64,000 nt of DNA from Escherichia coli. GTDB lineage: Bacteria > Pseudomonadota > Gammaproteobacteria > Enterobacterales > Enterobacteriaceae. The notes under the pieces are model-generated. The model saw nothing but the letters and a program-made list of their open reading frames with translations. It had not been told where the DNA came from and did no database searches. The DNA is taken from NCBI RefSeq assembly GCF_003334785.1, contig NZ_QOWV01000007.1; one strand, written 5' to 3'. Both the position numbers and the translations under genes were made by a program. Shown here piece by piece: positions 7,765 through 59,394 of the stretch (position 1 is its first letter; each line of letters begins with the position of its first letter).

Positions 7765-7890
<126 letters not shown>

Positions 7891-40233: not shown

Positions 40234-40289
40234 CCCGAACTGACGGTTAATTCGGGCATTCCCCTCTACCCTTCGGGCTGAGGGGAATG
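40234..40289. terminator. Two adjacent hairpins between convergent yaeH and cdaR
   Basis: CCCGAACTGACGGTTAATTCGGG, then CATTCCCCTC...GAGGGGAATG (10-bp stem); no clear U-run. Confidence 0.4.
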
Positions 40290-40320
40290 AGCCAGCGCCG
40301 CCTCAACCTTAACGCATAAC

Positions 40321-41478
40321 CTACCGCTCTTCATCCAGTTGTAACGCCACATACAGCAGCAACCTGTCATCAAAATTGCCCAAATCAAGCCCGGTCAGTT
40401 CCGATATACGATTAAGCCGATACTCCAGGGTATTACGATGAATAAACAACGCCTTTGACGTTGCCAGCGGTTGCACATTGTGGCGAAACCACGCCGCCAG
40501 CGTTCGTCGCAGCAAGCCGTTATTGTCCATCGTTTTCAGCCGCGCCAGCGGTCGCGCCAGTTCGTTGGCCTGCCAGTCGCCACGCAAACTGTCGAGTAAC
40601 ACAGGTAACATCAGATCCTGATAAAAATAGCAGCGACTTTCTGGCATCCGCTGTTTACCCACCACCATCGTCGTTTTCGCCGTACGATAGGATCGGGCAA
40701 TACTGCCAGGACCGGTAAAATAGTTGCCCAGTGAAACGCGAAAACGCAGCTGGCCGTACTCTTTCATGCGGGTAATCAGTTGTTCAACTCGCTTACGATG
40801 ATCTTCTGCATCCCAGCGCCCAAAAGAGTTCAACGCCGGTTTCAACACCACCATTTCGGTTAGCGAGACAATCGCCACCAGATTATTACGCTCGGGCGTA
40901 GTCAGCGCGTTTTGCAGTTGTTGTAACTCCGCCATTGCGCTGTCCACGCCAAGCTGACCGCTGTCGACCTCAACAATAGCCACCACTCGCGGTTGATTGA
41001 GATCGATCCCCAGCCGTTGCGCCCATTCAGTAAGTGCGGGAGTATTCTCCTCTGCCTGAATCAGGTTCATCACCAGTTCTTCCCGCAAACGGCTATCCTG
41101 CGCCAACAAGTGCATCAACCGCGACTGTTCCAGCATCATTTCAGCCGTCATGCAAACCAGTTCGCCATATTTACGCAGATTCTCTGGTTCACCTGTCAGG
41201 CCAATTACGCCGACAATTTCACCTTCCAGCCGTAACGGTAGATTAATCCCCTGCCGCACACCGTGCAGATGACGTGCTACCGCGTCATCGATATCGACGA
41301 CTCGTCCCTGTGAAAGTACCAGCAATGCACCTTCGTGCAATTCACCAATACGCTCACGATCGCCGCTGCCGATAATTCGCCCACGGGCATCCATTACGTT
41401 GATATTGGTATCGATGATGCGCATGGTACGTGCCACGATATCCTGCGCCATTTTGGTATCAAGATGCCAGCCAGCCAT
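40321..41478 (-). CDS. cdaR: Carbohydrate diacid regulator CdaR (SdaR)
   Basis: 385 aa from MAGWHLDTKMAQ; C-terminal HTH; ORF-track entry extended 6 codons upstream. Confidence 0.9.
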   Translation of the reverse strand: MAGWHLDTKMAQDIVARTMRIIDTNINVMDARGRIIGSGDRERIGELHEGALLVLSQGRVVDIDDAVARHLHGVRQGINLPLRLEGEIVGVIGLTGEPENLRKYGELVCMTAEMMLEQSRLMHLLAQDSRLREELVMNLIQAEENTPALTEWAQRLGIDLNQPRVVAIVEVDSGQLGVDSAMAELQQLQNALTTPERNNLVAIVSLTEMVVLKPALNSFGRWDAEDHRKRVEQLITRMKEYGQLRFRVSLGNYFTGPGSIARSYRTAKTTMVVGKQRMPESRCYFYQDLMLPVLLDSLRGDWQANELARPLARLKTMDNNGLLRRTLAAWFRHNVQPLATSKALFIHRNTLEYRLNRISELTGLDLGNFDDRLLLYVALQLDEER

Positions 41479-41595
41479 AAGTCCTCCGTTATGCACGGCT
41501 TAGCATAAGGAAGTACGTAACGTACGGCATTGTGCAAATGCCTAAAGGATGATGAAGATGTATGGAGTTGTGGTGAAGTTCACAGATTGTAAGGA

Positions 41596-41626
41596 GAACC
41601 CCTTCCCGTTTTCAGGAAGGGGTTGA
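41596..41626 (-). terminator. Probable terminator after degP
   Basis: Minus strand CCCCTTCCTGAAAACGGGAAGGGG hairpin immediately after the degP stop. Confidence 0.45.
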
Positions 41627-41632
41627 GGGAGA

Positions 41633-43057
41633 TTACTGCATTAACAGGTAGATGGTGCTGTCGCCGCGCTGAATGTTGAGTGCCAGCACAGACGGTTTGC
41701 TGTCGAGAACTTTACGCAGTTCAGCGATGTTTTTCACTGCCTGCTGGTTCGCGCCAATAATCACATCACCTTTCTTCAGGCCGATCTGCGCAGCCGGAGT
41801 GCCCGTTTTCACGTTGTTCACTACCACGCCCTGATCTTTGCCTTTGTTGCTCATCTCAGCGCCTTCAATGCCGTTGAAGATGGAGCTGGAATCAACCTGA
41901 TTCTGGCTGCTCTGCTGCAGTTCCAGGTTCACGTTAACCTGCTTACCGTCGCGCAGTAAGCCCAGGGTCAGTTTGCTGCCTACCGGCATAGTACCCACCT
42001 GAGCACGCAGTGCGGCAAAGCTGCTGATCGGCTTACCGTTCAGTGAGGTGATCACATCACCCGCTTTAATGCCCGCTTTTGCAGCGGAGGAATTAGGCAG
42101 AACCTGGCTTACGAAAGCACCGCGCTGGGCGTCAACTTTCATCGCTTTCGCCAGTTCGGAGTTCAGCTCAGTCCCCATAATACCCAGCTCACCGCGTTTC
42201 ACCTGGCCGTATTCCACCATCTGCGAGGTCAGGTTTTTCACCATGTTACTCGGGATAGCAAAACCGATACCGATGTTGCCGCCGTCCGGTGCGAGGATCG
42301 CGGTGTTGATACCGATCAGTTCGCCGTTCAGGTTAACCAGCGCACCACCGGAGTTACCACGGTTGATCGCTGCATCGGTCTGGATGAAGTTTTCGTAGTT
42401 TTCGGCATTCAGGCCGCTACGCCCCAGCGCAGAGACAATCCCGGAAGTTACCGTCTCGCCCAGACCAAACGGGTTACCAATCGCTACGGTGTAATCACCC
42501 ACGCGCAGTGCATCAGAATCCGCCATCTTAATTGCGGTCAGGTTTTTCGGGTTCTGGATTTGGATCAGCGCGATATCAGAGCGCGGATCTTTGCCAACCA
42601 TCTTCGCGTCGAACTTACGGCCATCGCTCAGTTGAACTTTAATGACCGTCGCGTTATCAACAACGTGGTTGTTGGTGACGACATAGCCTTTATCGGCATC
42701 AATGATGACGCCGGAACCCAGCGCCATGAATTTCTGTTGCTGGCCGCCACCATTACCGCCCTGGCCACCCTGGCAGAACGGAGAGCTCTGGAACGGAGAA
42801 CCTTCCTGGCAGAACGGAGAATCATCACCGAAGAACTGCTGGAAATTACGCGGCATACGCGGCGTATTAACGGTTGTGCTACCTTCTACGTTAATGCTGA
42901 CCACTGAAGGCATCACCTTTTCGAGCATCGGTGCAAGGCTTGGCATCTGCTGGGCTGTCGTTGCTGAAGAAGTCTCAGCCGCCGTTGCAGAGAGCGGAGA
43001 TAACGCCAAACCTAAACTCAGAGCCAGTGCACTCAGTGCTAATGTGGTTTTTTTCAT
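41633..43057 (-). CDS. degP: Periplasmic serine endoprotease/chaperone DegP (HtrA)
   Basis: 474-aa ORF with signal peptide, catalytic GNSGGAL, and two PDZ domains. Confidence 0.97.
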   Translation of the reverse strand: MKKTTLALSALALSLGLALSPLSATAAETSSATTAQQMPSLAPMLEKVMPSVVSINVEGSTTVNTPRMPRNFQQFFGDDSPFCQEGSPFQSSPFCQGGQGGNGGGQQQKFMALGSGVIIDADKGYVVTNNHVVDNATVIKVQLSDGRKFDAKMVGKDPRSDIALIQIQNPKNLTAIKMADSDALRVGDYTVAIGNPFGLGETVTSGIVSALGRSGLNAENYENFIQTDAAINRGNSGGALVNLNGELIGINTAILAPDGGNIGIGFAIPSNMVKNLTSQMVEYGQVKRGELGIMGTELNSELAKAMKVDAQRGAFVSQVLPNSSAAKAGIKAGDVITSLNGKPISSFAALRAQVGTMPVGSKLTLGLLRDGKQVNVNLELQQSSQNQVDSSSIFNGIEGAEMSNKGKDQGVVVNNVKTGTPAAQIGLKKGDVIIGANQQAVKNIAELRKVLDSKPSVLALNIQRGDSTIYLLMQ

Positions 43058-43099
43058 GTATTTCAGTCTCGATTAACAGATAACGCAAAATTGCTGTGT

Positions 43100-59308: not shown

Positions 59309-59394
59309 CCCCTCTCCCTTGAGGGAGAGGGTTAGGGTGAGGGTGAACGTGCGCGCTGATGCCCTCACCCCGGCCCTCTCCCACAGGGAGAGGG
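59309..59394. repeat. GC-rich composite palindromic intergenic repeat (boxC-like)
   Basis: Three nested inverted repeats: CCCTCTCCCT tg AGGGAGAGGG; GGGTGAGGGTGAACG...GCCCTCACCC; CCCTCTCCC aca GGGAGAGGG. Family assignment is from memory. Confidence 0.6.

Follow-up and report, generated by a model that had tools for sequence, protein, structure and literature searches.

A decayed boxC unit as the probable determinant of the yaeH mRNA 3' end in the convergent yaeH-cdaR gap of Escherichia coli

The gap between the convergent genes yaeH and cdaR of Escherichia coli K-12 contains two abutting stem-loops, and on sequence comparison most of it appears to be one decayed type-A boxC unit. The larger stem-loop, hairpin B, probably sets the 3' end of yaeH mRNA by way of Rho-dependent termination and subsequent trimming of the RNA; this explanation, taken as a whole from the decayed repeat to the trimmed end, was judged the best of those considered. 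In kind, the element belongs with the ordinary 3' stem-loops found on Rho-type transcripts, and the same element is possibly also a weak terminator for cdaR. Modestly new are the boxC derivation of hairpin B and the allele dimorphism of the gap. The analysis proposes a concrete, testable role for an unannotated gap in the best-studied bacterial genome.

Locus and hairpins

The window is the whole stretch of DNA that was analysed (64,000 nt). The region around 40.2 kb is identical to the E. coli K-12 MG1655 sequence in reverse orientation. Coordinates were converted using window = 223941 - MG1655 coordinate, and the conversion was confirmed with the 61-nt sequence listed by Adams et al. 2021. 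According to the open reading frames and the annotation, the yaeH (b0163, DUF3461) CDS lies at 39846-40232 on the + strand, and the CDS of its convergent neighbor cdaR (b0162) lies at 40321-41496 on the minus strand, leaving a gap of 88 bp at 40233-40320. The operon b0166-b0165-b0164-b0163, with yaeH last, is listed in the SMRT-Cappable-seq supplement, and yaeH is the final gene of the dapD-yaeI-yaeH read-through transcript. No promoter-like sites were found in the yaeH-cdaR gap by a sequence scan. Rfam gave no fitting family, as a scan of the window at the gathering threshold and a permissive scan of 40150-40420 returned chance-level matches only (for instance, a plant miRNA and an lncRNA). 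Literature searches on yaeH returned matches that were nearly all unrelated acronyms.

An earlier note on this DNA had described an 88-bp convergent gap holding two adjacent stem-loops with stems of 6 and 10 bp, and both the layout and the stems were borne out. Hairpin A (40234-40256) pairs CCCGAA with TTCGGG over 6 bp in + strand RNA and reaches 8 bp with G-U pairs in minus-strand RNA. Hairpin B (40257-40289) directly adjoins hairpin A and forms a 10-bp outer stem of CATTCCCCTC and GAGGGGAATG with an inner CCC/GGG stem. Because it sits in a convergent gap, hairpin B is also a 3' UTR structure of the opposite gene; the cdaR 3' UTR has both hairpins in reverse order (B first, then A).

Folding energies in K-12 were -6.8 (+) and -8.6 (-) kcal/mol for hairpin A and -21.8 (+) and -22.4 (-) kcal/mol for hairpin B. 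A 101-nt region was more stable than its shuffles on either strand, folding at -31.9 kcal/mol (z -2.4) on the + strand and at -40.5 kcal/mol (z -3.0) on the minus strand. Perfect stems of at least 10 bp with a loop of 3-20 nt occurred four times in the 64 kb, hairpin B among them, compared with 1.5 +/- 1.7 in dinucleotide shuffles, and the exact hairpin B pattern was seen in 0 of 100 shuffles. This stem count was used in place of a generic inverted-repeat listing of the window, which was uninformative.

The yaeH-strand 3' end and Rho

The Term-seq data of Adams et al. 2021 (eLife, PMC7815308, supplementary file 1) contain a dominant steady-state RNA 3' end on the yaeH strand at MG1655 183649(-), which is 40292 in the window. 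This is the last C of ...GAGGGGAAUGAGC, 3 nt beyond hairpin B. The coordinate appears three times in the file, which has one tab for each growth condition, and the end is thereby placed in all three conditions; its scores in two rows are 70971.9 and 131285, of the same order as those of the neighboring dapD terminator. The earlier note had suggested 3'-end mapping, which these published data already supply for the yaeH strand, and had named a lack of transcript ends near the hairpins as counting against its reading; such a lack is not seen. Adams et al. 2021 (PMC7815308) label the end as "antisense cdaR" and not as the end of yaeH. It lies 60 nt beyond the yaeH stop, outside the 50-nt limit used there for a "primary" end. 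From its strand and position, we infer that it belongs to yaeH, and the published "antisense cdaR" end would be re-labeled as the yaeH mRNA end.

In the yaeH direction, the consensus scan found no terminator-like sites on the + strand of the gap. The + strand sequence after hairpin B is AGCCAGCGCC, with no U; an intrinsic terminator was taken to be a GC-rich hairpin with a U-rich tract starting 0-2 nt after it. Directly 3' of hairpin B, a C-rich, G-poor tract (40290-40379, + strand) extends into sequence antisense to the 3' end of cdaR and is a candidate rut region. The C/G ratio in 80-nt windows of this tract is 2.5-2.7, at the 99.8-99.9th percentile of both strands of the 64 kb; for 40290-40369, C/G = 2.5, the 99.8th percentile of the window.

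A Rho termination region is given for the yaeH strand in supplementary file 2 of Adams et al. 2021 (PMC7815308) at 183583(-), window position 40358, a low-resolution coordinate obtained with 800-nt windows. Its Rho score is 5.05 (p 1.9e-7), and the reads upstream/downstream are 56/13 untreated and 99/116 with bicyclomycin. Read-through thus rises about 5-fold with this Rho inhibitor, as a region-level value from 800-nt windows and low counts. Because of the window size and the low read counts, the bicyclomycin effect could stem from antisense transcripts starting inside cdaR instead of from yaeH read-through. Entries for yaeH/cdaR were not found in the TERMITe 2025 supplements.

Dar & Sorek 2018 (NAR, PMC6061677) described Rho-dependent transcripts with precise steady-state ends just after stable stem-loops without a U-tract, with rut-like sequence directly downstream, the ends arising when PNPase/RNase II trim the RNA as far as the protective hairpin. 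The yaeH site is like these in its precise end a few nucleotides after a stable stem-loop, its lack of a U-tract, the excess of C over G just downstream, and the bicyclomycin-sensitive read-through. It is unlike them in that hairpin B would derive from boxC and not from REP or unique sequence, and in that the hairpin lies in a convergent gap and belongs to the cdaR 3' UTR as well.

The missing U-tract, the Rho region, the C-rich tract, and the match to the class of Dar & Sorek therefore favor Rho termination followed by trimming. In the absence of a U-tract, RNA polymerase most likely transcribes through both hairpins. Rho would bind the C-rich, G-poor RNA directly after hairpin B and terminate inside the antisense of the cdaR 3' end, after which the 3'-to-5' exonucleases PNPase and RNase II would trim the RNA back until blocked by hairpin B, leaving a 3' end 3 nt beyond its stem. 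The end would in that case be set by trimming and not by termination, Rho would act on the yaeH transcript itself, and hairpin B would define the steady-state 3' end of both the yaeH mRNA and the dapD-yaeI-yaeH read-through RNA and would presumably stabilize the mRNA. A Rho-dependent element, an RNase-protective element, and a degenerate repeat had been offered in the earlier note as options. The first is supported by the Rho region at 183583(-) (score 5.05) and the downstream C/G of 2.5, the second by the 3' end sitting 3 nt after hairpin B, and the third by the comparisons with boxC given below; the three are mutually compatible.

The cdaR strand

In the minus-strand direction, the U-rich tail AUUAUUUAC (40225-40233), which overlaps the yaeH stop codon, comes after hairpin A, and the two form a weak intrinsic-terminator-like site. 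The earlier statement that the hairpins lack a U-run is correct for hairpin B on the + strand and needs qualifying here; the tail on the cdaR strand had been missed. The consensus scan match on this strand has 8 pairs (4 G-C), a loop of 7, and the tail ATTATTTACG, with a weak hairpin of -8.6 kcal/mol. On the + strand, an A-rich run precedes hairpin A. In the cdaR direction, hairpin A with AUUAUUUAC may act as a weak intrinsic terminator.

It is rather unlikely, and compatible with the best explanation, that the hairpins serve mainly cdaR, with hairpin A and AUUAUUUAC as its intrinsic terminator, hairpin B as an upstream helper or stabilizer, and the yaeH end as a by-product. The only terminator-like consensus match in the gap is on the minus strand, and the minus-strand RNA folds better (-40.5 vs -31.9 kcal/mol). 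Several positions that are mismatched as A.C on the + strand pair as G.U in minus-strand RNA. In an alignment of 11 distinct Escherichia sequences (alignment A2), the hairpin A pair of columns 19-31 is A.C on the + strand in 9 of 11 and G.U on the minus strand in all 11, so that it is paired in 2/11 and 11/11, respectively; the hairpin B pairs 37-75 and 38-74 are paired in 9/11 and 7/11 on the + strand and in 11/11 each on the minus strand. Against this reading, hairpin A is weak (-8.6 kcal/mol, falling to -1.2 to -3.5 kcal/mol in some E. coli haplotypes), has no compensatory change, and folds better on the + strand in 3 of the 11 variants, and the U-tract is interrupted and in any case dictated by the end of the yaeH reading frame around its stop. 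Adams file 1 has no 3' end on the cdaR strand in this area, and cdaR/b0162 was not found in the supplementary tables searched, an absence that low expression of cdaR probably explains. The G-U asymmetry may also reflect only one or two ancestral events. As proof of a cdaR-strand role of hairpin A, the asymmetry was rejected, given the three variants that fold better on the + strand and the weak hairpin A of some haplotypes; it is a hint that hairpin A may matter more for the cdaR RNA.

boxC ancestry

The boxC repeats of E. coli are also called PIT or TMECO (Bachellier et al., 1990s; Hoyne and Maher 2000; Holder et al. 2015, PMC4666352). The arms of hairpin B had been likened in the earlier note to boxC-like arms at 59309-59394. 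That comparison element is a genuine boxC pair, TMECO nos. 1 and 2 of Holder et al. (MG1655 164547-164631). The three-block boxC core, CCCTCNCCC N3-6 GGGNGAGGG N3 GGGNGAGGG (Holder 2015, PMC4666352), was searched as a regular expression over the window and matched only at 59310-59343(+) and 59362-59394(-). It gave no match at 40.2 kb, where K-12 has CCCTCTACCC-TTC-GGGCTGAGGGG. By inspection and pattern scan, the third G-block for a purine-motif intrastrand triplex is absent from K-12.

Two nhmmer profiles were used for the orthologous sites. The core-only profile was built from 23 published TMECO cores and gave 22.5 bits (E 1e-5) for Escherichia sp. MOD1-EC7003 (L017), 18.3 bits for E. whittamii (L010), 12.5 bits for L011 and RMDEC465, 6.8 bits for one E. 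coli haplotype, and 2.1 bits (E 24) for K-12. The extended profile was built from 15 MG1655 type-A units with their flanks, from boxC loci elsewhere, for which 14 further MG1655 loci were fetched; its consensus is ...GCcCGGaCgGTC/CCCTCGCCCC ttt GGGGAGAGGG TTA GGGTGAGGG/GAACAGcC... With this profile, the E. whittamii site scored 30.5 bits (E 1.5e-8) and aligned with a single gap, of 6 nt, L017 had E 2.6e-6, L011 had E 2.7e-5 with a 12-nt gap, RMDEC465 had E 0.003, and the common E. coli haplotypes had E of about 0.014. K-12 was aligned at 40252-40284 with a marginal 8.3 bits (E 0.13). This was the top match in the 64 kb outside genuine boxC units, and the next background match scored 0.8 bits.

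The likeness to other boxC copies thus holds through the orthologous yaeH-cdaR sites, which match the boxC profile (E. whittamii, E 1.5e-8); K-12 itself does not match the core pattern. Because K-12 fails the pattern and is marginal on the profile, the ancestry of its copy rests on sister-species orthology. The envelope of the putative decayed type-A unit is 40238-40303 (+, nhmmer), covering the 5' flank, block 1, the loop, what is left of blocks 2 and 3 in fused form, and the 3' flank. In the alignment, GCTCGGGCAGTC, made up of the hairpin A 3' arm and the junction, is the counterpart of the boxC 5' flank, and GAATGAGCC is that of the 3' flank. Like boxC, the K-12 element is intergenic and has a type-A 5' flank (GCnCGGnCrGTC), a block 1 of CCCTCTnCCC, a short loop rich in T, a 3' arm rich in G, and GAAcAGCC as its 3' flank. 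It departs from boxC in missing 12 nt, which comprise loop 2 together with most of block 2 and some of block 3, in not matching the three-block pattern, in having no capacity for the triplex, in occurring as a single copy, and in three gained substitutions that lengthen a new outer stem.

The single-copy status was obtained with a 100-nt BLAST query, which at E <= 10 had a single location in each of 3566 E. coli genomes, and an active dispersed repeat was therefore rejected. As a single-copy sequence that fails the defining pattern of the family, the K-12 copy is called a relic and not an active family member. That the exact sequence is single-copy had been missed in the earlier note. When hairpin A, hairpin B, and the tail were compared with 80 loci by blastn-short to look for homology outside Escherichia, only L010, L011, and L017 had significant matches. 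A 12/13 match, inverted, between the hairpin A loop and the spacer of the Pseudocitrobacter boxC pair was dropped, being at chance level by a rough estimate of the search space and not recovered by blastn-short.

In the history suggested by these alignments, deletions would have taken away most of blocks 2 and 3, three later substitutions would have re-zipped the remnant into the stable 10-bp stem-loop that is hairpin B, and hairpin A would form weakly by pairing of the former boxC 5' flank with sequence next to yaeH.

Variation and selection

Across the gaps of 80 species representatives, very different palindromic elements were found between yaeH and cdaR. Eight loci, those of Pseudocitrobacter and Enterobacter among them, hold intact boxC units; the pattern matches nowhere else in these loci, and all of the units lie in the yaeH-cdaR gap. 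REP-like GCCGGGTAAGGCG...CACCCGGC hairpins occupy the gap in Citrobacter and others, and plain terminators occur elsewhere. By inspection, without folding or counting, most surveyed gaps have a palindromic or terminator-like element after yaeH. One orthologous site traces a series from an intact repeat in other genera, through a 6-nt deletion, to a 12-nt deletion with stem-lengthening substitutions, which outlines a route from a dispersed repeat to a gene-specific 3' stem-loop.

The E. coli gap is dimorphic, with the K-12-type 88 bp in 3566 genomes and an unrelated 53 bp in 1784 (about one third). Carriers of the 53-bp gap include the type strain ATCC 11775, an APEC O2:K1:H7 strain, and strain PS_131_S11, and E. 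albertii has a gap of the 53-bp type. This gap has a single hairpin, GGCCGGGT-aaagtctc-ACCCGGCT, followed by GTAATTTTGT, a canonical terminator facing yaeH, and the terminator polarity is therefore swapped between the two alleles. The swap agrees with the remark of Dar & Sorek 2018 (PMC6061677) that terminators can switch between Rho-dependent and Rho-independent forms. The two unrelated E. coli solutions, one a Rho-type hairpin and the other a canonical terminator with the polarity reversed, constitute a natural experiment on the mode of 3'-end formation.

Within alignment A2, hairpin B has a stability of -17 to -24 kcal/mol in 11/11 variants, although deletions change the pairing scheme; at three of its pairs both positions vary, and the share of paired cells is 90.9%. 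Relative to the sister species, E. coli has three specific substitutions (A2 columns 39 G>T, 74 C>T, and 75 A>G), each of which creates a Watson-Crick pair, and the outer stem grows from 7 to 10 bp. With the boxC flank consensus as the reference, columns 39 and 75 likewise gain a pair, and for column 74 this depends on how the flank alignment is read. Conservation of hairpin A is poor, its energy running from -1.2 to -10.9 kcal/mol across the 11 variants, and no compensatory changes were found in it in A2. The pattern in hairpin B suggests selection.

These data also bear on whether the element is a neutral relic of a boxC insertion without selection, whose 3' end would be incidental because any stable hairpin blocks exonucleases. 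The gap is hypervariable in Enterobacteriaceae and dimorphic in E. coli, the K-12 copy is degenerate, and boxC loci are unusually variable according to Holder 2015 (PMC4666352), all of which would fit neutrality. It is nevertheless unlikely, as each of the three E. coli-specific substitutions adds a Watson-Crick pair, three pairs have compensatory changes, the stability of hairpin B is kept through two deletions, an element of palindromic or terminator-like appearance follows yaeH in most surveyed gaps on inspection, and the other E. coli allele provides a canonical terminator.

boxC units and RNA 3' ends

To our knowledge, no function has been assigned to boxC/PIT/TMECO since the 1990s. In substring searches of the Adams table, further boxC or boxC-like units, lying in either orientation, were seen to have a dominant Term-seq 3' end 3-4 nt beyond the hairpin that blocks 1 and 2 form. 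These ends are at MG1655 847200(-), 3781065(+) (primary for lldD, TMECO no. 17), 3959467(-) (TMECO no. 20), and 4231270(-); a further boxC-associated end, at 632098(+), lies 11 nt past the hairpin. Within the literature searched, no papers linking boxC repeats to mRNA 3' ends were found. Together with the yaeH site, these five boxC-associated ends suggest an RNA-level use of a family studied mainly as DNA triplex. Tentatively, boxC may act like REP in general, as 3'-end-defining, protective stem-loops of often Rho-terminated transcripts in either orientation, and the yaeH-cdaR unit may have been kept and re-zipped by selection for such an RNA role while its triplex block was lost.

PIT/boxC reportedly lacked terminator activity in the work of Hoyne and Maher, as cited in Holder 2015 (PMC4666352), a report that is compatible with trimming and gives it no positive support. 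The report also weighs against hairpin B being a non-canonical intrinsic terminator of yaeH that releases the RNA near 40292 by the hairpin alone, with neither U-tract nor Rho. Such release would account for a precise, abundant 3' end 3 nt from a -22 kcal/mol hairpin and for an operon table that stops at yaeH. A weak rU:dA hybrid is required for established intrinsic termination, and the 3' flank AGCCAGCG has no U. As the read-through is bicyclomycin-sensitive and Dar & Sorek (PMC6061677) ascribe such ends to trimming, hairpin-only release is very unlikely.

A role at the DNA level, in which an intrastrand triplex or H-DNA would promote recombination or local genome instability, is the least credible explanation: boxC/TMECO elements form triplexes in vitro and mark variable loci (Holder 2015, PMC4666352), and the yaeH-cdaR gap is highly variable among strains and genera, but K-12 has no third G-block, leaving CCCTCNCCC-N3-6-GGGNGAGGG-N3-GGGNGAGGG unmatched, and a stable triplex in vivo is unsupported even for intact units (Holder 2015, PMC4666352).

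With Rho termination and trimming to hairpin B as the preferred explanation for the yaeH end, the element can be set beside two further kinds of 3' structure. Canonical intrinsic terminators, including bidirectional ones at convergent genes, are said to have been described by Ju et al. in 2019. The yaeH-cdaR element resembles them in its GC-rich hairpin in a convergent gap and in the cdaR-strand hairpin A followed by a U-rich run. It differs in having no U-tract on the yaeH side, in that the U-flanked hairpin is the weak one, and, from bidirectional terminators, in having two separate hairpins and not one symmetric hairpin. REP/BIME elements were reportedly recognized as mRNA 3' stabilizers by Newbury and Higgins in 1987. 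The proposed action of hairpin B is similar to theirs, in that they are dispersed palindromes at gene 3' ends whose RNA folds block 3'-5' exonucleases, often on Rho-terminated transcripts. Hairpin B is unlike them in its unrelated sequence, its single copy, and, by inspection, its lack of a REP consensus. The 53-bp E. coli allele, on the other hand, resembles a REP-type hairpin in shortened form (GCCGGGTAA...ACCCGGC) and is close in appearance to the Citrobacter copies.

The gap between the convergent genes yaeH and cdaR (window 40233-40320) is a recurrent landing site of palindromic repeats across Enterobacteriaceae. The gap was surveyed past yaeH, at about 1887-2010 of the fetched loci, in 80 species representatives (L006-L085). 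Intact boxC units were found in the gap of eight loci, where they were the sole boxC pattern matches within the 3.4 kb fetched, and REP-like units were found in the gap of many others. Several genera lacked cdaR, and in these the convergent neighbor of yaeH was degP. Within E. coli, the gap was dimorphic, with an 88-bp boxC-relic allele in 3566 genomes and an unrelated 53-bp allele in 1784 genomes; about 75 genomes matched neither. The 53-bp allele (for instance, positions 404-456 of loci L002/L003, and also L007 and L008) is common to E. coli and E. albertii, carries a canonical terminator facing yaeH, and resembles the Citrobacter-type REP hairpin in shortened form.

In strain RMDEC465 (locus L004, compared with window 40213-40232), which is labeled E. 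coli, the gap was only 85% identical to that of K-12 and close to that of Escherichia sp. MOD1-EC7003, and hairpin B, the boxC relic, contained a compensatory change from C-G to U-A. Therefore, RMDEC465 may be a member of a cryptic Escherichia clade or bear a recombinant segment.

Convergent gaps and the stretches just past stop codons hold many of the K-12 boxC units (MG1655 loci L091-L104), including those at tauD/hemB, aaeR/tldD, frlR/yhfS, zntA/tusA, and yjdP/phnP, with further sites after gntP and just after pstA. The type-A units have in common an extended flank consensus that reaches outside the 37-nt published core, with GCnCGGnCrGTC on the 5' side and GAACAGcC on the 3' side. Five boxC/TMECO or boxC-like units outside the window had a dominant Term-seq 3' end (MG1655 847200(-), 3781065(+), 3959467(-), 4231270(-), and 632098(+); Adams 2021, supplementary file 1) 3-4 nt beyond the block 1/block 2 hairpin, or 11 nt beyond it in one case. 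Both orientations were represented; two of these units belong to the canonical set of 23, and the other three are degenerate. Such dominant ends just past the hairpins suggest that boxC repeats, a family without an assigned function, have a REP-like part in RNA 3' ends. Another Term-seq 3' end beyond the window, at MG1655 2945855(-), fell at an apparent intrinsic terminator with hairpin arms GGGTGAGG/CCTCGCCC and TTA before the hairpin; this terminator may have been assembled from boxC fragments.

Elsewhere in the window, the cdaR-degP interval contained a perfect 10-bp hairpin at 41597-41624 (CCCCTTCC-TGAAAAC-GGGAAGGGG, then TTCTCCTT). This hairpin matches the degP 3' end published at MG1655 182347(+), which Adams 2021 (file 3, PMC7815308) places within a Rho termination region ("Yes," with a Rho score of 4.57). 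Rfam matches at the gathering level were the start of a 16S rRNA gene (1-170), the REP-derived nucleoid-associated RNA naRNA4 (7807-7883), CssrA (33147-33256), t44 (34095-34181), and the HtrA (degP) 5' UTR thermometer (43052-43097).
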